From a virus (taxonomy: Duplodnaviria; Heunggongvirae; Uroviricota; Caudoviricetes), in the IMG/VR virus record IMGVR_UViG_3300046004_001633, positions 36,792 to 100,791 of that record: DNA of 64,000 nucleotides. One strand, given 5' to 3'. The notes below the pieces were generated by a model that saw only the letters and a list, made by a program, of their open reading frames with translations, was not told the origin of the DNA and made no database searches. Below, in pieces: positions 4,837 to 44,097 of this stretch. Numbering within the stretch: the first letter of the stretch is position 1; each line of letters starts with the position of its first letter. The position numbers and the translations under genes were made by a program.

Positions 4837-4839
4837 GCA

Positions 4840-5386: not shown

Positions 5387-5395
5387 ATTTGTTTG

Positions 5396-6373: not shown

Positions 6374-6378
6374 TTATG

Positions 6379-6450: not shown

Positions 6451-6487
6451 ATTTAATTTACCAATATGTCAAACAACTTTTATTCTG

Positions 6488-6560
6488 AGCTTTCTATAGG
6501 ATTCGAACCTATGACCCCTTCATTACAAGTGAAGTGCTCTACCAACTGAGCTAAGAAAGC
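6488..6560 (-). tRNA. tRNA-Thr (anticodon TGT)
   Basis: GCTTTCT-TA-GCTC-AGTTGGTA-GAGC. Anticodon stem CTTCA/TGAAG, loop CTTGTAA. T-arm ATAGG-TTCGAAT-CCTAT. Confidence 0.85.
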
Positions 6561-28446: not shown

Positions 28447-29084
28447 GGATAAATATCAACTTTATCTTTTCTGTAGCTGTTATGCGAATATAATCCGTTA
28501 GTACCAGATAATGCTTTTGTGTTTACAATAAACATTTGATTGTAATCATATTTTAAATCGATGCCATATGTTTTAGACCAATAAACTAGAAGATCATGAG
28601 TTGCTTCAATTTGTGCATCTGAATAACGATGGAAGTGTGTATATCCTTTATACGGTGTTGCTAGTGTAGTAACTTGATCTGCTGGTACTTCTCGGTCTAC
28701 ATAGTTAATGTATTTACCGCCAATCAATTCTAATTGTCCCCAATTGCAAATTTCAATACCAATTGCAAGTTTATCTATTATTTGATGTGGAACTTTATAA
28801 GCTCTAAAGACTTCTTGTTTGATACCTAAATGATATGCCCAATGCTTTGAACTAAATCCTTGAACTATCTCGCCATCTACCGAGTTCTTTGCGCCTAGAC
28901 CTGATATTGATACACACGTTGCAATACGTCCTCGATCATCAGTATTCCAATTTTGCATTACATTAACCGCAGAAGCATTTCCAGCTGTATGGTGTAATAC
29001 TATTTGTTTCTTAGTTGTTTCCTCTTTGTAATACTGTGATTCACTTAATGGATACTGCTTAATCTTTGTTAAATCCAAACTCAT
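28410..29084 (-). CDS. N-acetylmuramoyl-L-alanine amidase (amidase_2/PGRP fold)
   Basis: KQIVLHHTAGNAS motif typical of T7-lysozyme/PGRP amidases. 224 aa. Confidence 0.65.
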   Translation of the reverse strand: MSLDLTKIKQYPLSESQYYKEETTKKQIVLHHTAGNASAVNVMQNWNTDDRGRIATCVSISGLGAKNSVDGEIVQGFSSKHWAYHLGIKQEVFRAYKVPHQIIDKLAIGIEICNWGQLELIGGKYINYVDREVPADQVTTLATPYKGYTHFHRYSDAQIEATHDLLVYWSKTYGIDLKYDYNQMFIVNTKALSGTNGLYSHNSYRKDKVDIYPCPRMITMLKTL

Positions 29085-29101: not shown

Positions 29102-29359
29102 TTAAATTTCAGGTTCCTTATCTTTTGGTTCCTTAGCAAATTTTTCTACAGATGTACTAAATAGAGCTCCTATTACAATATATTTAATTGCATCTACTAA
29201 TACAGCAGATGGAGCAATTGATTTTGGATATAATGCGTTAATAAACATAATGATTATTAAACATAAAAATCCAATAAACCCAATTACCCGTTTTGAAGAT
29301 ACTTCTCCACTTTTGCAATCAGATAACATACTCTTTATAAAGCTTTTTTTTGTCGCCAC
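29102..29359 (-). CDS. small 2-TM membrane protein (holin-like)
   Basis: 85 aa: hydrophilic N-terminus, two TM helices, charged C-terminus KEPKDKEPEI. Confidence 0.45.
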   Translation of the reverse strand: MATKKSFIKSMLSDCKSGEVSSKRVIGFIGFLCLIIIMFINALYPKSIAPSAVLVDAIKYIVIGALFSTSVEKFAKEPKDKEPEI

Positions 29360-29416
29360 CGGTCATTCCTTTTTGCTGGAACTGATTCAATATCGTAACT
29401 TTATTATAAATATGGT

Positions 29417-30601
29417 TTAATCTACTTTAATCAGATTTTTTTCATAGGATTCAATATGATGGATTGTTATCTTGAGATTTCCTAAACGGAACTCGCCAAT
29501 TTCTCCAGATGCCTGTATAATTTCCGGAAGCAGGAATATATAAGCCGCATCATCATTTGTCATTCGTTTAGCATCAACTTCTACTACAATATCATCGTAA
29601 TCGTGTGGATTATTGTATTCGGCTGTCATGACTCTAGTTTTGAGATCAAACTTAGTTTTAGACTGTTCTGAATCAATGTAATGGGATGTTAACACCTGCA
29701 TTGTATCTTCTATATAGATTCGAGTGCAATATGGTTCTAATAATTCTAATATAGCACTAGTGCAATTTGCTACTTGTATTCCTATTTGATATACAGGAGC
29801 TTTGCTTCTAGTTCCCCATTTACGTATATAGTTCCGAAGTGATTGCAATTCAATTTGCTGAGTTCTATTTTGATATTCTTCTGAGAATCTAGATGTCTTG
29901 CTTACGAAGTGATAACACATTGCATCTAATGCTGTAAAACACGTCATACCTAATAACTCCCAACGTCGTATTAAATCATCATCTTCGCAGAACATTGGAT
30001 TAAATAAATTATCTAATCCTCCCATAGCTAATAACTTGATTCGAGACATACACATAAAGAATGTAATACCCGGCTCTGTTTTATCTGTATACTTGGATTT
30101 TTGTGTTTCTACATATGAGTATAAAGCCCCTTTATCAAATGTCTCTAGCTCCGTGCCTAAATCATGAATAAGTTTACCCGGGCGTTCGTGTCCTGCGAAT
30201 ATAGGCGGTTCTATTGTGGTATATGACACCACATTATCTGGACTGATATGTTTTTCTAGATTTTCTAAAAATCCAGGAGCCAACACAATATCATTATGAA
30301 GATATGCTACGTAATCTGTTGTTGCTAATTCAGCTGCTTTATTAAATGTATCAGCAAATGTTTTTTGTTCTTCTGAATAAAAGTACTTAAGATTATTATC
30401 TGCTAAACTATCTAACCATTCATGTGTACCATCTGTAGATCCATAACTTACAAAACATAATTCAACTTCTGGATACAATTCTCTTGTTGTTATGTAAAAG
30501 TGTTTATTGTAGTCTAAATTATTTTTTAATCCAACTAGTAGCGCTATGTTATTTTTCATATTAAATTTTAATGTATTGTCCATTATAGTATTGTACTCCA
30601 T
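29417..30601 (-). CDS. glycosyltransferase (GT2-like)
   Basis: 394 aa with CFVSYGSTDGTHEWL...YVAYLHNDIV DxD-like region. Confidence 0.5.
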   Translation of the reverse strand: MEYNTIMDNTLKFNMKNNIALLVGLKNNLDYNKHFYITTRELYPEVELCFVSYGSTDGTHEWLDSLADNNLKYFYSEEQKTFADTFNKAAELATTDYVAYLHNDIVLAPGFLENLEKHISPDNVVSYTTIEPPIFAGHERPGKLIHDLGTELETFDKGALYSYVETQKSKYTDKTEPGITFFMCMSRIKLLAMGGLDNLFNPMFCEDDDLIRRWELLGMTCFTALDAMCYHFVSKTSRFSEEYQNRTQQIELQSLRNYIRKWGTRSKAPVYQIGIQVANCTSAILELLEPYCTRIYIEDTMQVLTSHYIDSEQSKTKFDLKTRVMTAEYNNPHDYDDIVVEVDAKRMTNDDAAYIFLLPEIIQASGEIGEFRLGNLKITIHHIESYEKNLIKVD

Positions 30602-31253
30602 ATCCTAAAACTCGTTCCATGCCATGGGCTAATGAGTTTGGTATATGTCCTAATTCAAATTGATTGTATAACAGATCCAAATCAATATCCTTAAATAATA
30701 TAGTTAAATAAATTGAATTAACCAACCACATTGTGCCGGCAAAGAAAGCTCCTTCGTTTGATATATTCAAAAGTTGAGCTGCCTTGTTAATAAATTCTAT
30801 ATTATTTAGTCGATTAATATGATCAACTGGTTCTTTAAACATATCATGATAATATATAGTATTACCTAGCATCCATGGCCATGGAATTGAAACTGTTTGA
30901 TCTAGGATATTGTCATAGTTTTCAGCAATGCCAAAATATGATTCTTGTCGCCACCAGTCCCCTACTCCTGGAGTATGCACTGATTTCTTTCCGTGAATCT
31001 TAAGATACGTTGTGTAATCTAAATGTTTAATTTTATTATAAACATATATGAATGGAGCGACATCGGCGCCCCGATTTTCAATAACGAATAACTCAGTAGC
31101 AATCTTACGAATATCATCTAGAATCTGATTGGAAGAATCTGTTACTGTAACATATAAATGAACATCTAGGTTCTGTAGTAATGGTTGTAACTTTTCTTTA
31201 AATTCGTCCCATAGATCTAAATAATATAAATGTAAAATAATACAGTGTTTCAT
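30561..31253 (-). CDS. RgpF-like (rhamnan synthesis protein F family) glycosyltransferase
   Basis: N-terminal HCIILHLYYLDLWDEF matches the RgpF hLHlYY.DL signature. Confidence 0.5.
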   Translation of the reverse strand: MKHCIILHLYYLDLWDEFKEKLQPLLQNLDVHLYVTVTDSSNQILDDIRKIATELFVIENRGADVAPFIYVYNKIKHLDYTTYLKIHGKKSVHTPGVGDWWRQESYFGIAENYDNILDQTVSIPWPWMLGNTIYYHDMFKEPVDHINRLNNIEFINKAAQLLNISNEGAFFAGTMWLVNSIYLTILFKDIDLDLLYNQFELGHIPNSLAHGMERVLGYGVQYYNGQYIKI

Positions 31254-32122
31254 TATAAATTATTTATTATAGTCGTATATACATGTACATGTTGTTTTGC
31301 TACATATGTGCTAGCACATAGATCAGTTATGTAATCCGGGGCTTCAGTTTCTATACTTAAAATATTTCCTGCATTGTCAATTAAATACATATAGCCAGGA
31401 ACATCGCAACACCAACCTTCTAATGTAGTACGACCTAATAAAATACCTGCGGTGAAATTCATGCACTGCACTAAATTTTCAGTGTCCCATCGTTTATCAA
31501 CATATTTTATGTTAGGATGATTAAAATCAAATCGACTATCACTCATTAGATATAAGTCCCAATCATTTTCAATACACTGATTAACTAGATGTTGTACAGC
31601 ATTAAATCTAATTGGATCTAATACTTCGCCAACAAATATCCCAGAATGTTTGCTAAATTTAGTAGCATCTTCTGTGTTGAATCTAGATCGATCAATTGGA
31701 TTATAAATTAATGATACTTTTGATTTTGGTATTTTATAATCATTAACAAGCATATTAGCAATTGGTTGTCGTATTGCTATATAATGAGATATTCTAGAAT
31801 CTAATACCGGGTCTTCTGATCTAATTTCCGAATGGATGATACTAATGATTGGAGTACTAGCGAAATGGTTCAATATAAAGTTATTTACTTCAGGCTGACT
31901 AGCTACTATGATATCAAATTTTTCTGTAATATCCAAATTCGTAGTATCTAATTGCCTAACATGTTGTAATTTCAATCTAACTTCATTTGTCCAATCAATT
32001 TGCCGCAAAGTAAACAGTGTGACATCATGGCCTAGTAGATCCAATTCACGAGCTAATTCATAATGATACATTTCACTACCGCCAAATCCATTTGCATTAA
32101 TGCAAGATAAAAGTATTTTCAT
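31253..32122 (-). CDS. glycosyltransferase, GT-B (GT4-like)
   Basis: MKILLSCINANGFGGSEMYHYELARELDLLGHDVTLFT is a GT4-type N-terminus. Confidence 0.5.
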   Translation of the reverse strand: MKILLSCINANGFGGSEMYHYELARELDLLGHDVTLFTLRQIDWTNEVRLKLQHVRQLDTTNLDITEKFDIIVASQPEVNNFILNHFASTPIISIIHSEIRSEDPVLDSRISHYIAIRQPIANMLVNDYKIPKSKVSLIYNPIDRSRFNTEDATKFSKHSGIFVGEVLDPIRFNAVQHLVNQCIENDWDLYLMSDSRFDFNHPNIKYVDKRWDTENLVQCMNFTAGILLGRTTLEGWCCDVPGYMYLIDNAGNILSIETEAPDYITDLCASTYVAKQHVHVYTTIINNL

Positions 32123-32703
32123 GGTTTAAACTTTAAATAATTTTCTATAATAGATTCATTGTAATCCCGGAAACCGTCCTGTAAATCAGAATGGGATGGT
32201 AATTGATATGCAATCATTGGATCGCACATATACACGTTATGGTTTGCCATTAATTTTGAATAGCATACATCAATTTCAAAATCTAATTTCAAATTTAAAA
32301 TAGTATCATAAAATCGTTCATGAACCATATATGCGTGAGTTGTATATGCTCCTGATAATTTAAGTAGTAGCGTGGTAATACTATGAGCGGGTGAATTTAA
32401 ATTTGCTCCTAGATATAGCATATCCCATTGTTTGTTTTGAATTTGATCAAATGCTGAATTGAATATTGAAATGCAATTATCAGTAAACATGGCGTCGTCT
32501 TCTAAAATTAATACATACGGTAAATTATTATCTTTTGCAAGTTGTATACATTTAAGATGTGACGCAAAACATGTTTTTGTTTCATCCCGGATTGCATCGA
32601 CAATTTCATATGATAGTCTCGGGAGTTTTTTTATTTCTTCGAGAATATATGATTTTCTATCCGTACGTTCTTTTAAATTTATTATGTATGTAGGTATCAT
32701 CAC
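32119..32703 (-). CDS. glycosyltransferase family 25 (LOS/LPS galactosyltransferase-like)
   Basis: IPTYIINLKERTDRK, CFASHL and ILEDDA motifs of GT25. Confidence 0.6.
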   Translation of the reverse strand: MMIPTYIINLKERTDRKSYILEEIKKLPRLSYEIVDAIRDETKTCFASHLKCIQLAKDNNLPYVLILEDDAMFTDNCISIFNSAFDQIQNKQWDMLYLGANLNSPAHSITTLLLKLSGAYTTHAYMVHERFYDTILNLKLDFEIDVCYSKLMANHNVYMCDPMIAYQLPSHSDLQDGFRDYNESIIENYLKFKP

Positions 32704-33680
32704 AGATCTTTGTTATACGTAGTTAACCAATATTCTATCATTTCATCTAACATTGTTTCAAGCGTGTATGTGTGTTTCCAACCAATTTTTTGTATTAATT
32801 TAGTTGGATCTCCCTTAAGGTTATGTAGTTCCTCGGGACGTAAATATCGATTATCGGTAATTACATAATCTTTCCAATCTAGATCTAGATATGAAAATAC
32901 ATACTTACATAAATCTTTTACTGAGTGAGATACGCCGGTAGCACACACATAATCATCAGGTTCATCCATTTGTAACATTGACCACATAGCTTCTACATAA
33001 TCTTTTGCATGTCCCCAATCTCTAGTTGCGTCTAGATTACCTAATTTTAGTTTATCAGATAGTCCCAATTTAATTCTAACTGCTTCTTTACAAACTTTAT
33101 TAGTTACAAAGTTAGTGCCACGTCTAGGTGATTCGTGATTAAATAATATCCCATTTGAAATAAACATATTATATGAATGTCGGTAATTCCTACTTATATT
33201 ATAAGCATATACTTTTGCACAACCATATGGCGATACTGGATTCATGGAAGTTGTTTCTCGCTGATATCCGTCGCTATCTATATTATTGCCAAACATTTCA
33301 GAAGACGATGCTTGGTATATTTTAGTATCTGGTTTTATCAATCGAATAGCTTCTAATAAATTTAATGTTCCAACTCCCGTTGCCTGCGCAGTATATACTG
33401 GCTGATCAAATGATATTCCTACATGAGACTGTGCTGCTAAATTATATACTTCATCTGGCATTACTTTTGTAATAACTCTTACTAATGAAGCCATGTCGGT
33501 TAAATCAGCATATTCTAGTTGTATTTTATTAAATACAGTATCGAGTCTAAATGTTTGATTCTCAGCTACTGAGTTTCTTTTTAGTGTACCAGTTACTTCA
33601 TATCCTTTAGATAATAGCAATTCGGCTAAATATGATCCATCTTGGCCGTTTATACCTGTTATTAATGCTTTTTTAATCAT
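32700..33680 (-). CDS. gmd: GDP-mannose 4,6-dehydratase
   Basis: KALITGINGQDGSYLAELLL, YNLAAQSHV, YGCAKVYAY, NGILFNHESPRRG, DWGHAKDYV and LKGDPTK are near-identical to the E. coli Gmd signature blocks. Confidence 0.85.
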   Translation of the reverse strand: MIKKALITGINGQDGSYLAELLLSKGYEVTGTLKRNSVAENQTFRLDTVFNKIQLEYADLTDMASLVRVITKVMPDEVYNLAAQSHVGISFDQPVYTAQATGVGTLNLLEAIRLIKPDTKIYQASSSEMFGNNIDSDGYQRETTSMNPVSPYGCAKVYAYNISRNYRHSYNMFISNGILFNHESPRRGTNFVTNKVCKEAVRIKLGLSDKLKLGNLDATRDWGHAKDYVEAMWSMLQMDEPDDYVCATGVSHSVKDLCKYVFSYLDLDWKDYVITDNRYLRPEELHNLKGDPTKLIQKIGWKHTYTLETMLDEMIEYWLTTYNKDL

Positions 33681-34833
33681 TATTAATTATTTTTATTACT
33701 CGATCTAATTCGATATTAGTTAAACTTTGATGATTTGGAATATAAAATCCATATTTATCTACTAGTTCACAATTTTGTAATCCTGGCTTATTAAAATGTT
33801 CATACCAAAATGGCTTATTGGCTAAATTCCCAGCAATCAATGGTCGGCACTCAATATTATTTTCAATTAAATTATTTACTATTGATTCTTTATTTTTACT
33901 AACAATTGGCATTGCAAAATTTGAGATAAAGTTAGTAGGCGATATTTGTATATTTAATTCATTACCTGTAATATTATTTATATAGTAATTAAAATTTGAA
34001 TTCCTGGCTGATGAAAATGTATCTAATTTATCGATTGCTTTGATGCCAATAAATGCTTGTAGATCAGTGGATCTTAAATTCATTCCTGGCAAATAAAAGT
34101 TATATAGATTTTCGAATTGATTTAAATTATACTTTTCTTTATAATTTTCTTGTTGTTGGGTTGGTAAATCTCTTGCCCATCCATGGCTTCTCATCATTAA
34201 TAATGCATAGTATAATTCTTCATCATTTGTATTAATAAAGCCGCCTTCAATAGTACTTAAGTGATGACCGAAATACATAGAGAAAAAGGAAGCCATTCCA
34301 AATGTACCTAAATAGCTATCATTAAACTTAGAACCCATACTTTCACATACGTCTTCTAATAAAACAACATCATAGTTTTTACATAGTTCTAAAATTTTAT
34401 CCATTTGTGGAACTAGACCTAAAACTGATACTAATATAACAGCTGCAGGTGATTCTTGTATAAATAATGATTCTAGGTGTACCAGATCACATGATAAATC
34501 AGTTAAGTTACAATCACATAATATTGGATCAAATCCTAATAATATAGGCGATGATAAATCAGTAGCCCAACTTAGAGCTGGCACGACTATTTTATTATTT
34601 TTTAATCTGTTTGTATGTTTTAATGCTGCTAATGTTAACAATATAGATGAAGATCCCGAGTTAACAAATACTGAATATTTTGATCCTAACTTATCAGCCC
34701 ATTTTTTTTCTAATTCAATTGTTAGATCTCCTTTGGTTAATCTTGGTATTGGATCTTGTTTTAACCAGTCGATTAGACTGTCAATATCAACGCGATTAAT
34801 TGTATCACTTACCAGTTGTATATTTTTATCCAT
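33673..34833 (-). CDS. DegT/DnrJ/EryC1 aminotransferase-fold enzyme, ColD-like (active-site Lys replaced by His)
   Basis: SGSSSILLTLAALK PLP-fold region. In SFFSMYFGHHLSTIEGG the position of the Schiff-base Lys (SFHxxK....GEGG) is His. This is the hallmark of GDP-4-keto-6-deoxymannose 3-dehydratase ColD. Confidence 0.55.
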   Translation of the reverse strand: MDKNIQLVSDTINRVDIDSLIDWLKQDPIPRLTKGDLTIELEKKWADKLGSKYSVFVNSGSSSILLTLAALKHTNRLKNNKIVVPALSWATDLSSPILLGFDPILCDCNLTDLSCDLVHLESLFIQESPAAVILVSVLGLVPQMDKILELCKNYDVVLLEDVCESMGSKFNDSYLGTFGMASFFSMYFGHHLSTIEGGFINTNDEELYYALLMMRSHGWARDLPTQQQENYKEKYNLNQFENLYNFYLPGMNLRSTDLQAFIGIKAIDKLDTFSSARNSNFNYYINNITGNELNIQISPTNFISNFAMPIVSKNKESIVNNLIENNIECRPLIAGNLANKPFWYEHFNKPGLQNCELVDKYGFYIPNHQSLTNIELDRVIKIINND

Positions 34834-34880
34834 ATAATTCTTTTTATTAATATAATTAAATTATTTCATTAATCCAAATT
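34834..34880 (-). promoter_or_regulatory. sigma70-like promoter TTGGAT-N17-TATATT
   Basis: Minus strand TTGGAT (34877..34872), 17-nt spacer, TATATT (34854..34849). Upstream of the ColD-like gene. Confidence 0.45.
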
Positions 34881-34885
34881 GAATT

Positions 34886-35503
34886 TTATTCGATTATCGA
34901 CCAACTCTCCCAGATCCAATCATAATTCCACGACAATGTATGTGTTTTAGATAATTGTTCATGAATAGCCGTTCTACGTATGTCACAATCTGGTATAAAT
35001 CTATGAAACTGCACTTGTAAGTTTTTTATAGTTGATAACATTTTTTGATCGATTAATCTTTCTATTACATCATATTCAGAACCTTCTATATTTAACTTAA
35101 GTAAATCTACTGACTGTATTTTATTTGAACGTAAATATTTAGAAATATCAATACACTGAATTGTTTCACTACTGCCAGATCCATATAGCGATGACCCATC
35201 ATTATCTAAATAAATTATATCTTCTTTTGTCGAATTTGATAATCCTAATTGATTAATAATAATTTTCGGATTTGAACTAAATTTAGATTCTAATACATCA
35301 AACATTGATTTTATCGGTTCAAATATATGTACATAACAATCGTATTTATCATGTATAATATCTGTAAATTCCCCTCGATATCCGCCGGCGTCTATCACAA
35401 TCGAATCTTTAGTTAAATTATAAGTATACTGTAAATTTTGTGTTTGATTTGCATTTACAAAATTATTATATACTTGCATATCAAATGGAACGTAAAATTT
35501 CAT
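34886..35503 (-). CDS. FkbM-family methyltransferase
   Basis: VIDAGGYRGEFT SAM-binding glycine motif of the FkbM family. 205 aa. Confidence 0.55.
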   Translation of the reverse strand: MKFYVPFDMQVYNNFVNANQTQNLQYTYNLTKDSIVIDAGGYRGEFTDIIHDKYDCYVHIFEPIKSMFDVLESKFSSNPKIIINQLGLSNSTKEDIIYLDNDGSSLYGSGSSETIQCIDISKYLRSNKIQSVDLLKLNIEGSEYDVIERLIDQKMLSTIKNLQVQFHRFIPDCDIRRTAIHEQLSKTHTLSWNYDWIWESWSIIE

Positions 35504-35504
35504 A

Positions 35505-36527
35505 TTAATCCTTATTTAAAATTGTGTTATACCATGTTATGAATTCAACTACGCCGTCCTTTATAGATTTCAATTGAAAACTACCAAATTCATTTTTATA
35601 TCGATCCAATGAATTCCATACAATAGTTGGCGCAGAAACTGATACTGCATTATTTGATTTACCTTTTATAATTTCTTTATTAACAGTTGCTCCTATAATT
35701 TCAGCCAATTCATGAATTGTGCATTCTTCTTCGCCGCATATATTATATACATTCTGTGTTCCATTTAATGCAATGTTTAATAGCATCAATGTAAAGTCAG
35801 TAACATGTAAATAGCGTCGTTTAGCACTACCATCATCAAATAACTGTATTGTATCGTTTGACCCTATAGCCTTCTGTACTAATTCACTTAATACTCGAGA
35901 ATCATCTTCTAATACGCCTGGGCCGTAACATAATGATACTCGTGCTGAAATTGCATTATATCCTTGGTTTCTTAAATTGTTAACAATCAATTCGCCGTTA
36001 ACTTTTCCTAAAATATAAAAGTTTCGTTTATTATTCAAATCAATATTAATATTATCTGATTCGGTATGTGCTGTTTGTTTATCAGATGCTGAGTATATTT
36101 CTGAACTACTTAAATAAATACATGTTGCGTTTGAATTACTATTGAAAATGGATTCAAATGTATTAGCTACTCCGTATGAATTAAGTAATAAAGTAGTCAT
36201 CGATTGTGATAAAAATTTTAAAGGTTGAGCATATCCTGCACAATAGAAACAAAAATTAATATCGGGAACTATTAAATTATCTTTTGATAAATCAGTACTT
36301 ATATATGTAACATCATCTCTATCTAACAAATGTATTATTCGACTAGGTATTGTCGATAAACTAGTTAATGTTAATTTAATGTTGTAATCATGAGTATCAT
36401 TTAAATATGAGAATAAATCAGCTAGAAATCCCCCTATAAGCCCATTAGCACCAGTAATTAAAATGTTAGCATTACTAAGCTTAGTTAAATTTAGTTGTGA
36501 TATAATTTTTTCGTAATCGTGTTTCAT
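35505..36527 (-). CDS. NAD-dependent epimerase/dehydratase (extended SDR; candidate GDP-sugar 4-reductase/epimerase)
   Basis: ILITGANGLIGGFL Rossmann motif and YILGK (YxxxK). Confidence 0.6.
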   Translation of the reverse strand: MKHDYEKIISQLNLTKLSNANILITGANGLIGGFLADLFSYLNDTHDYNIKLTLTSLSTIPSRIIHLLDRDDVTYISTDLSKDNLIVPDINFCFYCAGYAQPLKFLSQSMTTLLLNSYGVANTFESIFNSNSNATCIYLSSSEIYSASDKQTAHTESDNINIDLNNKRNFYILGKVNGELIVNNLRNQGYNAISARVSLCYGPGVLEDDSRVLSELVQKAIGSNDTIQLFDDGSAKRRYLHVTDFTLMLLNIALNGTQNVYNICGEEECTIHELAEIIGATVNKEIIKGKSNNAVSVSAPTIVWNSLDRYKNEFGSFQLKSIKDGVVEFITWYNTILNKD

Positions 36528-37393
36528 AATTGTAATTTGTTCAATATTGTGTTAGTATCCATACCAGATGCTTGTCGTAAGTCATCATATGAACCGTATT
36601 CTGTAATAAATTTATTTTGTATTCCAATTCTAGTTACGGCTACATTAAATGTAGAGCTTATTAAGTCTCCTAAGCCGCCAGTAATAAAATGATTTTCTAC
36701 TGAGAATATTTTGCTATCACTATTGAATACTTTTGAAATTTCATTAATGGACTCTGTTGAGATATTTGATAATGTAGAAACATAGAATATTCCAATTTCT
36801 TCATCACGCAATACATCATCTAATAGATGTCCTGTTACAAACACGTATTTATTATTTTTAGATTTTTGAATAATATTAATCTCATTAGATTTAACTACTA
36901 GATCTTGTGTATGTGAATGATTTGATAATCGAAAATACTTAGGATTACCATTAGCCCATGATTGTTTAAATAATTGTTCGAATTCGGAAGCAGATCCGGG
37001 TTCGTATACATCCATTCCCGGAATACTTCTCATTAATGCAATATCACTATAACAATGATGAGTACAGCCCAAGTCAGCATAATCATATGTTCCACCAACA
37101 GTAATAATTGTAACATCGGTATTTTGATATCCTAATCCAACTTTTATTTGTTCATACGCTCTTTCTACAACAAATGGAGCAATTGTATGTATGATTGGTC
37201 GCATCCCTTCGAGAGACATACCAGCAGCAACATTAACTGTAGATTGTTCGCAAATTCCTATATTAAAAAATCGATCCGGTGCTAGATTCTGGGCATCGCG
37301 CAACAAGTAGTGACTAATATCTCCTATTAATATTACAGATTTGTCATCAGTTTGTACAATATTTTTGCATATTTCTGCGAATTTAGTTCTCAT
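36524..37393 (-). CDS. transketolase, C-terminal subunit (pyrimidine-binding domain)
   Basis: FFNIGICEQSTVNVAAGMSLEGMRPI...GGTYDYADLGCTHH matches the Tkt Pyr domain. Confidence 0.65.
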   Translation of the reverse strand: MRTKFAEICKNIVQTDDKSVILIGDISHYLLRDAQNLAPDRFFNIGICEQSTVNVAAGMSLEGMRPIIHTIAPFVVERAYEQIKVGLGYQNTDVTIITVGGTYDYADLGCTHHCYSDIALMRSIPGMDVYEPGSASEFEQLFKQSWANGNPKYFRLSNHSHTQDLVVKSNEINIIQKSKNNKYVFVTGHLLDDVLRDEEIGIFYVSTLSNISTESINEISKVFNSDSKIFSVENHFITGGLGDLISSTFNVAVTRIGIQNKFITEYGSYDDLRQASGMDTNTILNKLQL

Positions 37394-38126
37394 ATATTTC
37401 TTGTATAAATTGTGTATATTCTTCTAACGTCGGGGCTTTATGATGCCAGGTAAACATATTTGATTCTAGTTGATTAATTCCTTTACCTTTAATTGTGTTA
37501 GCAATAATAAATGTAGGCATATCTGTTTTTGTATTTATCAATGATTGCATAATTTCATTTACGTCATGGCCATCAGTTTCGATTGAATTGCATCCGAATG
37601 ATTGAAACTTATCCTTAAGGTTGCCTAATGGTAATGATCGAATCTGAGATTGATTATAATCAACAATACAAACTAAATTATCTAATTTATGTGCAGCTGC
37701 TAGCATTACAGATTCCCATATACTTCCCTCATTGCATTCACCATCTCCAATTATACAATAAAATTTACCGGGCTTGTTAAGTATCTTTCTTGCCATGGCT
37801 GCACCAATTGCTGTTGGTAATCCTTGACCTAAAGACCCAGTCGATGTATATACTTTATTGATTTTATTTTTGTCCGGATGGCCTCCTAATTTACTTCCAG
37901 ATTTACCAAATTTGCGAAGTTCATCTACAGTTAATTCACCAATGATAACTAAATACGCATAATATGCTAAGCAGCCATGGCCTTTACTTAAAATAAAAAT
38001 ATCGTCCAGGGTCATAGTTTCATGTAGTGCACATATAATATCTACAATTGATAATGCACTTGGAATATGGCCATGCTTAGCATGAAATGCTGCATCTACA
38101 ATTAATTTTCTAATTTCTTTTTCCAT
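37383..38126 (-). CDS. transketolase, N-terminal subunit (thiamine diphosphate-binding domain)
   Basis: HIPSALSIVDIICAL, SKGHGCLAYYA, GSLGQGLPTAIGAAMA and GDGECNEGSIWE. Confidence 0.65.
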   Translation of the reverse strand: MEKEIRKLIVDAAFHAKHGHIPSALSIVDIICALHETMTLDDIFILSKGHGCLAYYAYLVIIGELTVDELRKFGKSGSKLGGHPDKNKINKVYTSTGSLGQGLPTAIGAAMARKILNKPGKFYCIIGDGECNEGSIWESVMLAAAHKLDNLVCIVDYNQSQIRSLPLGNLKDKFQSFGCNSIETDGHDVNEIMQSLINTKTDMPTFIIANTIKGKGINQLESNMFTWHHKAPTLEEYTQFIQEIYEN

Positions 38127-38130
38127 AAAT

Positions 38131-38628
38131 TTATATTAGTTTAGTTTTTGTATCTCGATGTGATAATATCGGCGAAACAATAGGCCAATAAATATTAATG
38201 TTAGGATCGTTCCACGTTAATGTAAACTGATCATCTACATCTGCATACGCGCCATCATATGCCCATTTATAATGAAGTAATGCTTGTTTGCTTAATACTA
38301 AGAATCCAATTGCAAATCCAGGAGGAGTTAATACTTGTTTTCTGCTTTTATCATCTAATATTATCCAATCCCACTTTAGGTAGTTTATAGAATCTCGACG
38401 ATTGTCTACTACGATAAAATATAATTCTCCGGATAAACAACTAGTTAGTTTCCATGATTTATTATCTCCATGTAATCCTCTTATTACATTTTGTCTAGAT
38501 GATGATATTTTATCATGTTTAAAATTTAGTTTTGGTTCAAACTCATCTTGATTCCAAATAGTTAATAAATCGCCTCGGAAATCAGTAAAAATATCTGGCT
38601 GATATACGGTAACTTCTGGAAATATCAT
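38131..38628 (-). CDS. RmlC-like cupin sugar-nucleotide 3,5-epimerase
   Basis: RGLHGD...KLTSCLSGELYFIVVD...PPGFAIGFLVLS...LHYKWAY follows the dTDP-4-dehydrorhamnose 3,5-epimerase pattern. Confidence 0.55.
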   Translation of the reverse strand: MIFPEVTVYQPDIFTDFRGDLLTIWNQDEFEPKLNFKHDKISSSRQNVIRGLHGDNKSWKLTSCLSGELYFIVVDNRRDSINYLKWDWIILDDKSRKQVLTPPGFAIGFLVLSKQALLHYKWAYDGAYADVDDQFTLTWNDPNINIYWPIVSPILSHRDTKTKLI

Positions 38629-39479
38629 AACTTAGTAAATATATTTTTAAACAACCAATCTTCTGTTACGGCATATTGTTTTGCTAATTCTAAATTTTCA
38701 TATGCATATTTTAATTTCGATTGATATAATTCTGGGGTAAGTGATGCTAAAATATCATCTAGTTCATCAGCTGAGTTAAAACAAATAAAACCATCAGTGT
38801 TAAAAAACTCTGATATATTTGGACAGCCCCAATATATTGGTATTGTTCCTACAACTAAACAATCTACAATTTTTTCGGTAAAATAATTTAATTGATTAGA
38901 ATTTTCTATTATTATTGAAAACTGATAATCTTGTAATCCATCTTCTTTGTTGATTAATGGTTTTGCAGATCCATGTCCGTAATAATCAATCCCAGATGAT
39001 TGAAATCGATTTGCAATTACGTGTCGTAATCGATGTCCAGTTAATTGTTGTCGTCCAGAGTATATCATCGAAACTAACTTTGTTTTGTTATGCATTTTCC
39101 AATTAGATTCATTAATCCAACAACCGCCAATTGGATACATTTTAGTTTTCTCCGGATAGGTTTTTAATAAGTCAGGATCATGGGTTAGTACAAAATCATA
39201 ATGATCTTTATATTGATCGAACGTATTATAAAAATGAGGATGTAATTCTCGAGACTCCATTAACCAACCAATCTTGTATTTACTATTAATTCTCGTAGCA
39301 ATTCCTGAATTTATAAAACTGTCAGTAAATAATGTAATTCCTTGCCAATTACTTTGATTTTTTACATATGTTGTGTAGTTTGTGCTTTTAGAGAAAACGT
39401 GTGAATATTTGCCATCTAGTGTCACTAAATGATCAAATGCCGTATCAAATAAATTAATTTCCATAATTATGTTATTCAT
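38625..39479 (-). CDS. glycosyltransferase, GT10-like (fucosyltransferase-like)
   Basis: FSIIIENSNQLNYFTEKIVDCLVVGTIPIYWG resembles the alpha-1,3-FucT FENS...YxTEK...G.VPIYxG motif. Confidence 0.45.
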   Translation of the reverse strand: MNNIIMEINLFDTAFDHLVTLDGKYSHVFSKSTNYTTYVKNQSNWQGITLFTDSFINSGIATRINSKYKIGWLMESRELHPHFYNTFDQYKDHYDFVLTHDPDLLKTYPEKTKMYPIGGCWINESNWKMHNKTKLVSMIYSGRQQLTGHRLRHVIANRFQSSGIDYYGHGSAKPLINKEDGLQDYQFSIIIENSNQLNYFTEKIVDCLVVGTIPIYWGCPNISEFFNTDGFICFNSADELDDILASLTPELYQSKLKYAYENLELAKQYAVTEDWLFKNIFTKL

Positions 39480-40272
39480 TAATACATACCCAATTTTCTG
39501 GGAACATATCTATTGTTGATAAATTATTAACAGTTGCCGGACCAAACCATCGATTGGGATATATTACTGTTTTAGTTGGATTACAATTAAGCCATGCGCC
39601 CCACCAACTAAATGTAGAATTTGCTATGATATTATGTTTGCACAAAGACATCAAGTATAAATCTTCTATATCAGATTGCGATTCTATGAATATATAATTA
39701 TTTCCGACAAACATGGTTTTACACCAATCTATATCATCACTGAATACTAAATACTTTGTTCCTGTTGAAAATTGTTTCACTGCATTTAAGTAATATGAAA
39801 TAGATAAATTATGATGAAAATCTGATAATGTTAAATAGTCGCCTCGACGTATATGCAATGAAACAGTATTTTCTTGTAATACTGGATATTTGTTATTTAA
39901 TTTAGTTAATACAATATTATTTGGTGCAAATAATTTTTGTATTTCGCTATTAAAATCGTGAAAATATTTATAAGATTGATAATATCCATGTAATATAATA
40001 TTAGATGTAATATTGACAATAGGCGTATATCGAAAACTTGGTTCGTGAAATTCAATTAGATTATGGTTATGAGTATATGGGATAAGTTTATTAAAAATTG
40101 TATCTAGATAATCACTCGGTGGTTTTGGTCTTGAATGTCCATGACCAATTTCTGTATATTGTGTGTTAATTAAATATTCAGCTCCGCTTCTTTTTGATAA
40201 TGAATATCCAGCAGCAACCTGAAATAACATATTACCTAATCCGCCCATTAATTTTGAAGTAATTATATTCAT
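39472..40272 (-). CDS. glycosyltransferase family 11 (alpha-1,2-fucosyltransferase-like)
   Basis: GGLGNMLFQVAAGYSL and HIRRGDY GT11 motifs. Confidence 0.65.
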   Translation of the reverse strand: MNIITSKLMGGLGNMLFQVAAGYSLSKRSGAEYLINTQYTEIGHGHSRPKPPSDYLDTIFNKLIPYTHNHNLIEFHEPSFRYTPIVNITSNIILHGYYQSYKYFHDFNSEIQKLFAPNNIVLTKLNNKYPVLQENTVSLHIRRGDYLTLSDFHHNLSISYYLNAVKQFSTGTKYLVFSDDIDWCKTMFVGNNYIFIESQSDIEDLYLMSLCKHNIIANSTFSWWGAWLNCNPTKTVIYPNRWFGPATVNNLSTIDMFPENWVCINE

Positions 40273-40892
40273 AGTGTGTTATAATAATTATTTTGTCGTA
40301 TTTGTCGTTCTATTGTCTTTGCATGATACAATGAATACGATTCTTCCATTGGTAATTGTGCAAATGTTTGAATACCAGTTAACTTTTCGTGTACCTTGTT
40401 CTCCCACTGAATCGACGGATGATTCTTATAGATTCTTCCTTGCCAATCCGGCCAATTAATCCAACCCTCACTATTAACACGCCATCCCCACTTTTTAATG
40501 TGGTCTGCAGTTAGATCAGAAACCGTGTTAACTCTTGGCACCCATATCATATCAACGCCGTCATTTGCACTTAATATAGCAGGTAAGGCTTCTATAATAG
40601 GAGTACATGGAATTTCATCTGCATCTATTTGGAATATATAATCTCCGGTGCAAAGTCTAGTTAATTTATTTTTCCAATCCGCAAAGTTTCCTTCGAATTT
40701 ACCTTTATGCCATGCAAACTCTCCATTAATGGAATGCGATCTTAAAAATGCTTCGATTTCAGAATCTCCATTTGTTTCATCATATAAAACCGTAATTGAG
40801 TCTTGAGCTCTTTTATGTTTTAAAAGAAATGCAATGAGTCTCTGTATTTCCATGAACTCATTGCATACTGTAATTGCGTAACTTATCTTCAT
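40269..40892 (-). CDS. glycosyltransferase family 2
   Basis: KISYAITVCNEFMEIQRLIAF N-terminus, DADE. Confidence 0.5.
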   Translation of the reverse strand: MKISYAITVCNEFMEIQRLIAFLLKHKRAQDSITVLYDETNGDSEIEAFLRSHSINGEFAWHKGKFEGNFADWKNKLTRLCTGDYIFQIDADEIPCTPIIEALPAILSANDGVDMIWVPRVNTVSDLTADHIKKWGWRVNSEGWINWPDWQGRIYKNHPSIQWENKVHEKLTGIQTFAQLPMEESYSLYHAKTIERQIRQNNYYNTL

Positions 40893-40921
40893 ACTATATT
40901 ATAATGAATTTAATTGATAAA

Positions 40922-42172
40922 TCAAATCTTTTGAAGCTTAGGTAAAGATAGAGTTGGTAATTTCAATTCAACTGATTTAGGAATACTAGTTAATCCGCCA
41001 TCAACAATACTCAATACAGTTTCATATGTTTTTGCAATTGCCGTACGAGTAAATGCAGTATTCACAAAGTATCGTTGGCGCTTACCTAACTCTAACCAAG
41101 TTTTATAATTCTTAATAACTTCTTGCATCATCTTACCGGCATATCCATAATCAACACTAAACCACTTTGCATCGCCAATTAAGAATTGATTTTGTGCTGT
41201 TGCGTGTATTGGTGATAATGTTCCTGGAAGTGCACATATGAAATCCTTCTTAAGGAAGTCTGCTTGTCCTGAATAATGTGGTGCTAGGATAGGTTTACCG
41301 GTTGTTGCAAATTCTAATAGAGGTCTTCCAAATCCTTCTGCTTTAGTAAATGATACCATTGCTTTAACTTTGGAATGATTATACAATGCATTCATTTCAT
41401 CATCAGATAATTCGCCATGAATCAAATATACATTTGGTAATTTAGCTTTGCCGAACATTGCTCCAACTTGATTGATCTTTCCTTCAATTTCCATGCGATC
41501 CATAACACTATATGTTGCTCCGGAGCATTTCATAATTAAAGCAGGTTGATTCTTTGTGTCCTTAAATGTATTAAAGAAACAATGCACCATACCTCCGATA
41601 TTTTTTCGGTCTTCCCCTACTTGGCCTTGCAACCAATGTCCAACTGATAGAAATGCCCATGATTCTGGTATTTCATCTAATTGAGCTATCGGTTCTTTAA
41701 TTTCAGAGGTAGTATACACTGATTCATCGAAATATTCAGGTATCACTTGCAAGTTGCATGTAATTGCTTTATCATGCTTCTTAGCTGTCTCTACAAACAC
41801 TGATTTTGTAAACTCACTAGGAACAATTACTAGGTGCATTGCATTTAGGTTATCGATCCAGTCTACTGGGCAGATATCACCTTCGGTACCTGCTGTTACT
41901 CCAATATTGTATTTTCCTACTGCTTGGAATTCATTTGGCACTGATATTTGAACCCAAACATCTGGTTGTTCCGTTAACGGTAATGGAATTATTCTTAACT
42001 GTAAATCCGTTGAAATTGGATATGTCATTGGGGTATGTCCCCATGGCAATGAAACTAATTTAACATCCCATTCAGAACCTCGTTGTTCTATAATGTTTGT
42101 AATAACTTCTCTTGCATGATGTCCGTAACCTGATTGTGTTGCTACTGGACTGGCTATAACTACTTTTCTCAT
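40922..42172 (-). CDS. glycosyltransferase, GT-B fold
   Basis: 416 aa. C-terminal KAEGFGRPLLEFATTGKPILAPHYSG is an EX7E-like GT4 motif. Confidence 0.5.
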   Translation of the reverse strand: MRKVVIASPVATQSGYGHHAREVITNIIEQRGSEWDVKLVSLPWGHTPMTYPISTDLQLRIIPLPLTEQPDVWVQISVPNEFQAVGKYNIGVTAGTEGDICPVDWIDNLNAMHLVIVPSEFTKSVFVETAKKHDKAITCNLQVIPEYFDESVYTTSEIKEPIAQLDEIPESWAFLSVGHWLQGQVGEDRKNIGGMVHCFFNTFKDTKNQPALIMKCSGATYSVMDRMEIEGKINQVGAMFGKAKLPNVYLIHGELSDDEMNALYNHSKVKAMVSFTKAEGFGRPLLEFATTGKPILAPHYSGQADFLKKDFICALPGTLSPIHATAQNQFLIGDAKWFSVDYGYAGKMMQEVIKNYKTWLELGKRQRYFVNTAFTRTAIAKTYETVLSIVDGGLTSIPKSVELKLPTLSLPKLQKI

Positions 42173-43662
42173 TCTGCTACTATTCCTGTTCGTTCATATT
42201 TTACTGGTTCAACTTTATTTACTGTGAATAAAGGTCTTCTTTCTCTATGCATTGCAAATAAATCATTAAACATGGAAATCATTTTGTTACCCATCTTCTC
42301 GGCAGTTAATCCATTAGCTAAAGCCCATTGTCGGCCTTCAAAACCACAAGCAGCCCTATTTTCTTCTGTCATGTCCCACCACGATCTTAATGCGGCTGCT
42401 ACATCTTCATATTTAACTCGGTCATCAAAGATATATGGTGTTTGGGGTGATCCTTGAAGGCTTCGGTTGCTAGGAAATACTGGTTTAACCCAAGATCCAT
42501 GTTTCTTGTATTTACCGGTGTGATTCGTTGCAAATTCTCCATCAAATCGAAGCCATTCGCCATTCTCATCTTCAAAGCCACATTGATCTTGTAAACCACC
42601 AGTAACATTGTTAACGATTGGCGTTCCTGCAAGAATGGCTTCTGTTGAACTAAGTCCCCAACCTTCGTTGCTTCCAATATTCACAACTACATCAGCAACA
42701 TTATACATTGCATTAAGATCCGGTGCTGACAGCTTTTGTTCTGAGAATATAATTTTACAATTGGGCGCCAATGTTTTCCATACTGCAATTAGATCCGTTC
42801 CGTTTTCATCTACTGGTTGTGTATGCATTAATAATGCTACACGGTCTTGTTGATCTGCTGGTAACCTATCTACGAATGTTTTGAATGCTAATATCAAATC
42901 GCCTGGCTGTTTTCTTCTAATATTGCGATTATTCCACATTACTATGAAATCAACCTTATTTGTTTCTTTGATTTGTTTTAACATTGAAACATGTAATGGA
43001 TCACTTGATGATAATGGTTTGAATATGTTGTGATTCAATCCGTGAGGAACATAACCTGTTATAATATCATTCCATTTCTTATCCATCGGCAATGTATCTG
43101 ATTCATCATAGTTAATTACGCCAAAACCATTCTGTTTAAGCACTTCTCTATGAATATTGTCTGACTGTTTGCTTATTCCCATAATCATATCGCAACTACC
43201 GTAAAAAGGTGCGTTCCACATTGGATAAGGTAGGTCATCCCAAATAGAGTAATATGTAATAGGAATTCCGAATGTAGTTTTAATTTCGTGTTCAATTGCA
43301 TACAACCAAGTCCAGTAACGAGGATCTGTAAAGTGTAGGATTGCATCTGGCTGTTCTTGATTGATAATAGCAAATAAGATATTTCTATCGCCATATCCAT
43401 TCCATGGAATCAACTTAACTGATGCATCTTCAATTCCAGTCTCTCGAATAATATCCTGAGATAAATCAAATGCTTGTCCTGCGTCTGGATGATTTAATGC
43501 TCCGCCTAATTGAACCCAATCAAATTCTTTAACGGTATTCAAAATGATTTCTTTGCTGACCGTTCCGATTCCAGATGGTAATCTAAAATCATCGCCTAAA
43601 AGAAGTATTTTCTTTTTTTGTGGCTTGTTGGGGTCAATTTTTTGTAACTTTGGTAACTCCAT
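42169..43662 (-). CDS. glycosyltransferase, GT4-like
   Basis: 497 aa. NEGWGLSSTEAILAGTPIV GT1/GT4 signature. Confidence 0.55.
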   Translation of the reverse strand: MELPKLQKIDPNKPQKKKILLLGDDFRLPSGIGTVSKEIILNTVKEFDWVQLGGALNHPDAGQAFDLSQDIIRETGIEDASVKLIPWNGYGDRNILFAIINQEQPDAILHFTDPRYWTWLYAIEHEIKTTFGIPITYYSIWDDLPYPMWNAPFYGSCDMIMGISKQSDNIHREVLKQNGFGVINYDESDTLPMDKKWNDIITGYVPHGLNHNIFKPLSSSDPLHVSMLKQIKETNKVDFIVMWNNRNIRRKQPGDLILAFKTFVDRLPADQQDRVALLMHTQPVDENGTDLIAVWKTLAPNCKIIFSEQKLSAPDLNAMYNVADVVVNIGSNEGWGLSSTEAILAGTPIVNNVTGGLQDQCGFEDENGEWLRFDGEFATNHTGKYKKHGSWVKPVFPSNRSLQGSPQTPYIFDDRVKYEDVAAALRSWWDMTEENRAACGFEGRQWALANGLTAEKMGNKMISMFNDLFAMHRERRPLFTVNKVEPVKYERTGIVAE

Positions 43663-43692
43663 TTTTTCCTTATAACTTTTATATAAATATGA

Positions 43693-44097
43693 TTATCCTA
43701 AAATAACCACGGGTTTTTTTAACTTGTTTACATTGGTATATGCAGTCTTTAATACTGGATCTAATGTAGTGTCTTGTGTTAGTATCATCATGTAATCACA
43801 TTTCTCTGCTATAAGCTTCATACGATGATGTAATTGGCTGAAATGATATGATTTACCATAATATGATTCTGGCATTGCTGAGTATAAATTATATCCAGAA
43901 AAAGAAGGATTATATTCACTGTAATTGATACCAAATTCCAATGCATACTTCTTAATCATTAAATTAGCACCTTCTGCACCTCCGGCTCCAATTAACATTA
44001 GATCTTCCGGGAATCGTTTCTTTAACTCTTGAAGTGTTTGTTGAACTTTTCTTTTATTCTGCCAACCTGTGCTTCCTATAACTGCTACTTTTGTCAT
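43693..44097 (-). CDS. DUF2493/SLOG-family protein
   Basis: KVAVIGSTGWQNKRKVQQTL...LMLIGAGGAEGANLMIKKYALEFGI matches the SLOG pattern (ViGsR...v.GGa.GaD). Confidence 0.45.
   Translation of the reverse strand: MTKVAVIGSTGWQNKRKVQQTLQELKKRFPEDLMLIGAGGAEGANLMIKKYALEFGINYSEYNPSFSGYNLYSAMPESYYGKSYHFSQLHHRMKLIAEKCDYMMILTQDTTLDPVLKTAYTNVNKLKKPVVILG

Follow-up and report, generated by a model that had tools for sequence, protein, structure and literature searches.

What does a T4-like phage do with a 14-kb block of sugar genes? The block in question, hereafter the island, occupies positions 29417-43662 of a 64,000-nt stretch of a Caudoviricetes virus (IMG/VR record IMGVR_UViG_3300046004_001633, positions 36,792 to 100,791), which was analysed whole and is called the window. 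Sixteen minus-strand open reading frames (ORFs) fill the island, overlapping or abutting with gaps of 30-52 nt at the widest, and all genes of the window lie on this single strand. Their identities, obtained by Pfam and NCBIfam profile searches, are given in transcription order in Table 1; nine of the 16 proteins are glycosyltransferase (GT)-like. An earlier sequence-only reading had described a phage-borne glycan-biosynthesis island. The gene families that it named, among them the GT10 and GT11 fucosyltransferase-type enzymes (PF00852 and PF01531) and the HIRRGDY motif in the 39472-40272 translation, are all in their places on the minus strand; its count of 15 genes is one too low, and its own list adds up to 16. 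Based on our observations, we propose that the island is one version of an exchangeable glycan locus, that its enzymes build a branched GDP-sugar and that soluble GTs deliver this sugar to a phage-encoded acceptor. We regard this as the best overall explanation and assign it a probability of roughly 0.4. All our readings derive from sequence.

Where in the phage genome does the locus lie, and how stable is it? The contig is that of a large freshwater T4-like phage, with 17 tRNAs, a T4-type PolB, ribonucleotide reductase, GroEL, RNA ligase, clamp and clamp loader, and a holin-endolysin pair. The window is syntenic with isolated phages, the nearest being Flavobacterium phage vB_FspM_immuto (holin 63% identical, GT1b 45%) and Microcystis phage Mel-JY01 (PolB 42.5%). 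In both, a PD-(D/E)XK nuclease gene is followed by GT1b, GT1a, a hypothetical gene in immuto, GT2b, a set of unrelated sugar genes (in immuto including aminotransferases, methyltransferases, an acetyltransferase and an epimerase) and a GT2a homologue. Identities to immuto and Mel-JY01 are 45% and about 45% for GT1b, 43% and 40% for GT1a, 53% (to a protein annotated 'glycosyltransferase family 2') and 37% for GT2b, and 37% (to gp169) and 27% for GT2a. Rhodothermus phage RM378 has the GT1b-GT1a pair only. Among uncultured phages, more than 120 environmental clusters (formed at 90% identity), on contigs of up to 166 kb, have a GT1b of 76-94% identity. Three of these relatives keep the synteny of the window through GT2b and then carry three wholly different gene sets: FkbM and other methyltransferases, a GMD-like gene and an ATP-grasp gene in L172; GT17, GT7, a TylF-like methyltransferase, DegT and an RmlD-like gene in L174; and GT2, a C-methyltransferase-type gene and a 3-beta-HSD-like epimerase in L176. 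When compared by megablast with 50,697 phage records, the island had no match, and its flank matched nothing but tRNAs and a 247-nt part of the thymidylate synthase gene. The island is one version of a hypervariable glycan locus at a fixed site, between the PD-(D/E)XK nuclease/SLOG genes and the lysis genes, in a lineage of ~160-kb T4-like aquatic phages that includes immuto, Mel-JY01 and many uncultured members. Its conserved frame consists of a 5' block, GT1b-GT1a-GT2b, and of GT2a as the 3' terminal gene; on our model the exchangeable AT-rich centre would set the outer sugars.

Base composition coincides with this division. The GC content of the 12 genes of the centre (30561-40272) is 0.275-0.328, and with GT2a included (13 genes, 29417-40272) the range is 0.275-0.329, whereas the 58 other window genes stand at 0.352 +/- 0.030. 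For the 14 genes in 29417-40892 the difference from the remaining window genes is significant (Mann-Whitney p = 1e-5). GT2b, GT1a and GT1b, at 0.354-0.368, lie outside the low-GC stretch, which corresponds to the variable centre. The AT-richness seen earlier by eye is thus real and is confined to those 12 central genes, and this AT-rich part does look separately acquired, as had been suggested. The island is also framed by a repeated signal. The promoter-like motif ATATTTATAWWAAAG has nine matches in the window (6237, 14359, 14372, 18070, 19907, 25355, 29399, 43676 and 48578), all on the minus, or gene, strand and 12-30 nt 5' of start codons, where 0.39 would be expected; it precedes the GroEL, lysis and glycan-operon units and is probably a phage-specific promoter. 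The T4 late promoter was tried as a candidate and set aside: TATAAATA has only three matches on the gene strand, and the reverse-oriented ATATTTATA is the recurrent motif. No copy of the 15-nt motif, with one mismatch allowed, occurs inside the island between the two flanking copies, which makes the island look like one transcription unit of 14.2 kb with a repeat at each end. Together with 29396-29417 the upstream copy makes up a direct repeat of 22 nt on either side of the island, and a direct-repeat search across the island found this motif as the sole meaningful repeat. The bracketing copies could be recombination points for cassette exchange.

Which sugar would the centre make? The first two steps are predicted on strong homology. 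GMD matches GDP-mannose dehydratases in the PDB at E 3e-97, and GDP-heptose dehydratase at 1e-33. The best solved match of the DegT-fold enzyme is E. coli O55 ColD (2gms, E 1.8e-63), followed by the weaker perosamine synthase (2.6e-30) and CDP-sugar dehydratase E1 (5.7e-29). The stretch SFFSMYFGHHLSTIEGG lies within the 33673-34833 translation, where the GHH of the phage enzyme aligns with the SHH of ColD and the first His of the HH pair with His188 of the E. coli O55 protein; the ColD mutant chains H188N and H188K depart from the wild type at exactly this column. The His at the position of the pyridoxal phosphate (PLP)-binding lysine, the signature of ColD, is thereby confirmed. Together, GMD and a His-variant ColD-type dehydratase predict GDP-4-keto-3,6-dideoxy-D-mannose, that is, the nucleoside diphosphate (NDP)-4-keto-3,6-dideoxyhexose intermediate in its GDP form. 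The cupin is closest to Campylobacter jejuni GDP-4-keto-heptose 3,5- and 3-epimerases (E 6e-42), with dTDP RmlC at 1.8e-24. Heptose chemistry was considered and rejected, as GMD is far nearer to GDP-mannose than to GDP-heptose dehydratases and genes for GmhA, HddA and HddC are absent.

The sequence-only reading had joined GMD, ColD and the short-chain dehydrogenase/reductase (SDR) into a route to colitose. Two of these enzymes fit that route, but the third does not. ColC is a GDP-fucose-synthase-like bifunctional C5-epimerase/C4-reductase, and the SDR, its sole candidate in the island, scores 42 bits against the GDP-fucose-synthase model NF047922, the cutoff of which is 500; it is therefore not a ColC orthologue. 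It is locked into a trio with the two transketolase (TK) genes, and epimerisation is the business of a separate cupin. The SDR is far from all solved structures (best E 2e-14, to a 'putative nucleotide sugar dehydratase'), and across 72 distinct sequences the trio SDRs conserve GxxGxxG, Ser142, Glu143, Tyr171 and Lys175 at 90% or more. The cupin and the SDR could between them supply the ColC function. Plain colitose as the product is doubtful.

What is the split TK doing in such an operon? TKN aligns full-length with the N chain of the Carboxydothermus hydrogenoformans split TK (E 1.7e-45) and keeps the GH, SKGH, GHPD, GDGE..NEG, DYN and WH motifs, including the catalytic His, none of which varies among 35 homologues. 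In TKC the Glu that activates the cofactor is present (CEQS). The pair thus has the thiamine diphosphate (ThDP)/Mg motif, activating Glu and catalytic His of a canonical transketolase (EC 2.2.1.1), but not the residues with which the canonical enzyme binds the sugar phosphate and the acceptor C2-OH. In the alignment of TKC to the split TK 6yaj, ATHAG..GEDGASHQ is replaced by TVGGT..ADLGCTHH; TVGGTYDYADLGCTHH stands in place of canonical ATHAGLTVGEDGASHQ, and YFRLSNHS in place of canonical YIRLGRSG (RLGR to RLSN). Of the sugar-phosphate residues tested, the N-terminal Arg alone is retained. We take the changed positions to be His461, Asp469 and Arg520 of E. coli TK, and the retained Arg to be Arg358; His461, Asp469 and Arg520 are the residues that contact the phosphate of the substrate and the C2-hydroxyl of the acceptor. 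The motif SVGxSYDYxxLGCTHHC with YFRLSE defines a large TKC subfamily, separate from the canonical split TKs in the same scan. The earlier suggestion that a split TK marks unusual ketose or heptose chemistry is not supported: GMD is a GDP-mannose enzyme, TKC has lost its sugar-phosphate-binding residues, and C-branching of a 4-keto sugar fits better.

How widely is this module distributed? TKN homologues of 55-97% identity are found on viral-looking metagenomic contigs, and the closest match among 185,579 species genomes is 50% identical. A tblastn search of INPHARED isolated-phage records with TKN returned only canonical transketolases at no more than 42% identity, mostly in unannotated, fragmentary or bacterial-titled records. 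TKN, TKC and SDR form an adjacent trio in 64 of the 84 viral and 22 of the 80 bacterial loci examined, with the non-canonical TKC motif in 63 of the former and 21 of the latter, and the SDR is unseparated from TKC in all 86, including loci without ColD or cupin. Within 10 kb of the viral trios lie GMD (at least 45% identity; 34 loci), the His-variant DegT enzyme (27), the cupin (25), GT10 (21) and GT11 (19); GT10-like genes also stand beside seven bacterial trios, and seven bacterial trio loci hold a His-variant DegT gene. In a marine phage-like group (L005-L008) the order of the same six genes is different. The bacterial trios are spread over many phyla (Candidate Phyla Radiation, Bacteroidota, Acidobacteriota, Verrucomicrobiota, Desulfuromonadia and others; L009-L034) and come in two layouts. 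One is TKN-TKC-SDR-SDR2-methyltransferase (cluster c3), with or without GT10, the second SDR and the methyltransferase being present in 13 of 24; the other is TKN-TKC-SDR-(GHH dehydratase)-Nudix, with the GHH-type dehydratase in seven to nine and the Nudix gene in some. The GHH motif is common to the phage and bacterial dehydratases that neighbour the trio. Wzm/Wzt-like ABC-transporter genes (clusters c6 and c10) lie near several bacterial trios. Five IMG/VR contigs (L104, L116, L124, L137 and L148) have a cupin, a ColD and a GMD of 69-87% identity to their counterparts in the window, but an intervening trio of only 32-50% identity (one SDR, 67%); the position of the trio has therefore been kept and its sequence swapped for a distant version. 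Co-occurrence, swapping in place and dehydratase neighbours together tie the trio functionally to GDP-4-keto-deoxysugar chemistry. A much wider claim, which we advance only as a doubtful conjecture, is that TKN-TKC-SDR is a widespread, so far uncharacterised pathway for C-branching of nucleotide sugars, in which the ketone of a GDP-4-keto-(3,)6-deoxyhexose is the acceptor for a transketolase-family enzyme, that it is spread over about 200 viral contigs and more than 10 bacterial phyla, and that in the phage lineage of the window it is one of many interchangeable cassettes at a serotype-like locus that gives the virion a variable glycan coat.

Two precedents underlie the chemistry that we propose. 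In yersiniose synthesis a ThDP enzyme (YerE) adds a two-carbon unit at C4 of CDP-4-keto-3,6-dideoxyglucose and a reductase (YerF) follows (PMC12247030). Split-gene TKs have in turn been proposed to put a hydroxyacetyl branch on keto sugars in miharamycin and amipurimycin biosynthesis; a 2025 review lists 13 putative examples, all from Streptomycetes and none characterised (PMC12247030). The island likewise has a split TK adjoining an oxidoreductase in a sugar-tailoring cluster, the coding regions of the trio overlapping. On this combined logic GMD would turn host GDP-mannose into GDP-4-keto-6-deoxymannose, the ColD-type dehydratase would yield GDP-4-keto-3,6-dideoxymannose and the cupin would invert C5 to give an L-series sugar. 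The non-canonical split TK with ThDP would then add a two-carbon unit at the C4 ketone, creating a tertiary alcohol; we place the branch at C4 because this is the only electrophilic sugar carbon after GMD and ColD. The coupled SDR would reduce the side-chain carbonyl, and the FkbM enzyme would methylate one hydroxyl. The predicted product is a GDP-linked, yersiniose-like 4-C-branched 3,6-dideoxyhexose, which GT10 and/or GT11 would transfer, with other residues added by GT25, GT4 and GT2. The donor specificity of GT11 is predicted from family membership, the Pfam GT11 domain and the HxRRGDY motif both being present. Everything after the GMD and ColD steps, including the branching reaction, the role of the SDR and the order of the steps, is what we infer.

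What would carry such a glycan? No transmembrane (TM) segment was found in any of the 16 island proteins; all are soluble enzymes, and glycan assembly is therefore cytoplasmic. Pfam scans of these proteins detected no priming phosphoglycosyltransferase, flippase, polymerase or Wzm/Wzt transporter family. The island is therefore not the complete polysaccharide-building kit that it had been called: it is neither a full Wzx/Wzy or ABC-transporter locus nor a phage Gtr serotype-conversion module, which comprises a 4-TM GtrA flippase, a GtrB bactoprenol GT with TM helices and a polytopic Gtr(type). The adjacent 4-TM protein (27979-28446), formerly likened to GtrA/SMR proteins, is a phage holin, 63% identical to the annotated holin of immuto and above the Phage_holin_4_1 cutoff. 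It belongs to a lysis cassette just downstream of the island, from which it is separated by an Amidase_2 endolysin (28410-29084) and an 85-aa TM-like protein (29102-29359), and it is not part of the island; in the close relative L001 a GH19-type enzyme takes the place of the amidase. Most likely, in our view, the acceptor is phage-encoded, that is, a virion protein. GT1b and GT1a occur in phages of hosts from three phyla (Flavobacterium, Microcystis and Rhodothermus), and this reach, with their strong conservation, suggests that the acceptor is made by the phage itself, the simplest candidate being a protein of the virion. The absence of membrane or export proteins from the island supports the same conclusion. 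The best PDB match of GT1b is the chlorovirus GT B736L (3oy2, E 8e-9), and the literature describes virion glycosylation as established for mycobacteriophages and giant viruses.

Several points weigh against branching and against a virion acceptor. The TK-SDR trio family has no characterised member, the Streptomyces precedent is itself a proposal, and literature searches found no characterised example of transketolase-type branching of GDP- or 4-keto-6-deoxy sugars. The natural acceptors of TK are aldehydes, not ketones. Alternatively, the SDR could serve to reduce C4 in a pathway of the colitose or ascarylose type. At many trio loci neither a GMD nor a 3-dehydratase was detected within 10 kb, and the acceptor may therefore vary from locus to locus. 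GT25 is a lipooligosaccharide (LOS)-type family, and the window, which does not include the structural genes, holds nothing that would reveal the acceptor of the glycan. Lastly, the GT clusters of T4-like cyanophages are usually read as genes for host cell-wall modification (PMC12801897).

Some of these points feed a serious rival, in which the same enzymes make the same sugar for a glycolipid of the host envelope, for example lipid A-core/LOS or an O-antigen or capsule intermediate carried on undecaprenyl at the cytoplasmic face, with export left to host transporters. The host surface would then be remodelled for superinfection exclusion or to prevent adsorption of progeny to debris. GT25, GT10/GT11 and GT2/GT4 are typical of LOS and O-antigen assembly, the bacterial trios sit in glycan loci of the ABC-transporter type, comparable cyanophage clusters have been so interpreted, and a hypervariable centre also suits an arms race over surface receptors. 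Nevertheless, GT1b and GT1a are conserved across phages of three host phyla with unrelated envelopes, the level of GT1b identity among the many uncultured relatives is easier to reconcile with an acceptor encoded by the phage than with one specific to a host, and the island has no priming transferase, flippase or ligase. We consider host-glycolipid remodelling somewhat unlikely, and retain a phage-encoded acceptor.

The main chemical rival to branching is an unbranched GDP-3,6-dideoxy-L-hexose, colitose or its C4 epimer, made with the cupin and the SDR in place of the bifunctional ColC, while the split TK works elsewhere, for instance in precursor supply or on a free sugar. GMD and ColD are indeed the first two colitose enzymes, the GT11 family includes colitosyl- as well as fucosyltransferases, and C. 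jejuni, going by the names of PDB entries, makes its GDP-6-deoxyheptoses with a cupin 5-epimerase and an SDR 4-reductase. What this model leaves unexplained is why the SDR stays with TKC in every trio locus, even where ColD or the cupin is missing, why TKC has lost its phosphate-binding residues and is embedded with its partners, coding regions overlapping, in a sugar-nucleotide operon, and why a distant, swapped-in trio still lies between cupin and ColD. We judge an unbranched product improbable and prefer the branched one.

Least probable by a wide measure is that the GTs hypermodify phage DNA with glycans against restriction, as T4 does with glucosyl-hydroxymethylcytosine and as other viral DNA GTs do; the families GT10, GT11 and GT25 are not known to modify DNA. 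In all relatives GT1b and GT1a do have genes for replication and nucleases around them, a further phrog_2170-type GT adjoins a DpdA-like transglycosylase, and glycan hypermodification of DNA by viral GTs is documented (cited in PMC12619734), but the ThyA homologue is a true thymidylate synthase, the window has no sign of hydroxymethyl-pyrimidine synthesis, and liquid chromatography-mass spectrometry of DNA from immuto, which has the conserved GTs, gave only dA, dC, dT and fdPreQ1 (PMC10516641). The DpdA-like gene is an observation in its own right: 51611-54050, on the minus strand, holds a 416-aa DNA 7-deazaguanine transglycosylase-like protein (Pfam TGT 26.5 bits, cutoff 26.3) beside a third phrog_2170/GT4-like protein of 398 aa. 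In immuto every G is replaced by fdPreQ1 (PMC10516641), so by analogy the phage of the window probably also carries 7-deazaguanine DNA.

Table 1. Genes and flanking signals of the island in transcription order
Feature	Position	Strand	Remarks
Promoter-like motif ATATTTATATAAAAG	43676..43690	-	14-28 nt 5' of GT1b start codon; upstream boundary of the operon
GT1b, GT-B (GT4-like) glycosyltransferase, 497 aa	42169..43662	-	Pfam Glycos_transf_1 26.1 bits, slightly below the 26.4 cutoff; phrog_2170
GT1a, second GT-B glycosyltransferase, 416 aa	40922..42172	-	C-terminal LPxLxK repeat tail
GT2b, small GT-A-like protein, 207 aa	40269..40892	-	Weak Pfam Glyco_tranf_2_4 match; closes the conserved 5' block
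GT11 alpha-1,2-fucosyltransferase-type	39472..40272	-	PF01531 96 bits; phrog_2644 E 5.5e-56; HIRRGDY; opens the variable low-GC centre
GT10 fucosyltransferase-type	38625..39479	-	PF00852 41.9 bits, cutoff 23.9
Cupin (RmlC-fold) epimerase, GDP-4-keto-sugar type	38131..38628	-	Closest PDB matches C. jejuni GDP-4-keto-heptose epimerases
TKN, split transketolase N (ThDP-binding) subunit	37383..38126	-	PF00456 124 bits
TKC, split transketolase C (pyrimidine-binding) subunit, non-canonical subfamily	36524..37393	-	Motif comparison
Extended SDR	35505..36527	-	Directly after TKC in every trio locus
FkbM-family methyltransferase	34886..35503	-	PF05050 38.6 bits; TIGR01444 56.7 bits
ColD-type PMP (pyridoxamine phosphate)-dependent GDP-4-keto-6-deoxymannose 3-dehydratase (DegT fold)	33673..34833	-	His at PLP-lysine position
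GMD, GDP-mannose 4,6-dehydratase	32700..33680	-	PF16363 395 bits; TIGR01472 397 bits, slightly below the 415 cutoff
GT25 (LOS-type) glycosyltransferase	32119..32703	-	PF01755 65.9 bits; phrog_2835
GT4-type glycosyltransferase	31253..32122	-	N-domain alone detected; PF13439 43.5 bits
RgpF-like protein, 230 aa	30561..31253	-	C-terminal part only; PF05045 64.9 bits, profile positions 271-499 of 503
GT2a, GT2 glycosyltransferase	29417..30601	-	PF00535 53.4 bits; conserved 3' end of the island
Second promoter-like motif copy	29399..29413	-	Directly after GT2a stop codon; opens the lysis-gene unit

Some features of the island and its surroundings complete the picture. The RgpF-like gene is missing from the closest relatives (L001-L004). 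The C-terminus of GT1a (40922-40970) ends in ELKLPTLSLPKLQKI and the N-terminus of GT1b (43630-43662) starts with MELPKLQKI; the GT1a tails of relatives also have LPxL(K/Q)K repeats (QLKLPTLKKIELPQTKKVEIPRLKKL in immuto, QLKLPKLQKA in L001), and this tail may be a docking or membrane-association peptide. Directly upstream of the island lies a gene for a YspA/SLOG-family protein (43693-44097), which has the same position in L172, L174, L176 and other close uncultured relatives, and farther upstream one for an SPFH/Band-7 protein (45867-46772). The thymidylate synthase (7286-8515), at 409 aa, is about 100 aa longer than usual and is matched by models in two or three separate stretches, which together with the extra length suggests an insertion. 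Its 247-nt segment at 7879-8125 is 91% identical in DNA to immuto thyA, in genomes otherwise too diverged for megablast. The array of 17 tRNAs (3993-6560, minus strand) includes two tRNA-Met and two tRNA-Arg.

What are the implications of such a locus? That large aquatic phages own many GT and sugar genes is already known. Within the material searched, the architecture of conserved ends and swappable centre in this lineage appears new, and so does the breadth of the non-canonical TK-SDR trio over viruses and bacteria. The ColD/cupin/TK/SDR module in a phage also appears new there; no isolated phage in INPHARED has a TKN more than 42% identical. If the proposal is right, a common group of freshwater phages owns an O-antigen-like hypervariable locus, and glycan 'serotypes' are a property of the phage as well as of its host, which would matter for how phages adsorb, how host defences or grazers recognise them and how they compete with one another. 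The trio would be the first enzymology lead for TK-type nucleotide-sugar branching beyond a few unproven Streptomyces cases, its spread over many bacterial phyla would indicate unknown branched sugars in environmental glycans, and a ketone-accepting TK would interest biocatalysis because it could give access to chiral tertiary alcohols. Should the proposal be wrong, the island is one more phage glycan cluster of unproven role, of a kind already reported in T4-like cyanophages.

The island can be set beside several known systems. With the clusters of the T4-like cyanophages P-SSM2, S-SCSM1 and S-SCSM2R the island shares a setting in large aquatic phages and a wealth of GTs (GT10, GT11, GT25, GT2 and GT1), NDP-sugar epimerases and RmlC-like genes. 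It differs in belonging to another phage lineage and in having defined conserved GT ends around a swappable centre; PMC12801897 does not mention a ColD/TK/SDR module, and a text search there for transketolase and GDP-mannose was negative. The systems of virion glycosylation, in the capsid and tail-tube of mycobacteriophages and in the clade-specific clusters of chloroviruses and Megavirinae, have in common with the island soluble virus GTs, rare-sugar pathways in the cytoplasm and clade-specific content. Here virion glycosylation is a proposal, and the mycobacteriophages have one to three GTs and no sugar-nucleotide pathway. The GDP-L-colitose pathway of E. coli O55 and Yersinia pseudotuberculosis (GMD/ColB, ColD and ColC) has the same start from GDP-mannose, a true GMD, a His-variant ColD-type dehydratase and GT11-type transferases. 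The phage island has no ColC-type enzyme but adds a separate cupin, a split TK, a coupled SDR and a methyltransferase, and its final sugar is therefore probably not colitose. The split TKs of miharamycin and amipurimycin, which belong to actinomycete secondary metabolism, resemble those of the island in gene layout, whereas the trio is found in glycan loci of phages and of bacteria from many phyla. The pathway to yersiniose A (YerE and YerF, with the related branching enzymes ErwE and MMAR_2332) shares the whole order of events that we propose, namely 4,6-dehydratase, 3-dehydratase, ThDP-dependent C-C coupling at the C4 ketone and side-chain reduction. In the island, however, the carrier is GDP and not CDP, the 3-dehydratase is of the ColD type and not E1/E3, and the ThDP enzyme is of the split transketolase family and not a YerE-type flavoenzyme (an FAD-binding carboligase of the decarboxylase/acetolactate synthase superfamily), so the donor is probably a hydroxylated two-carbon unit and not pyruvate-derived acetaldehyde.

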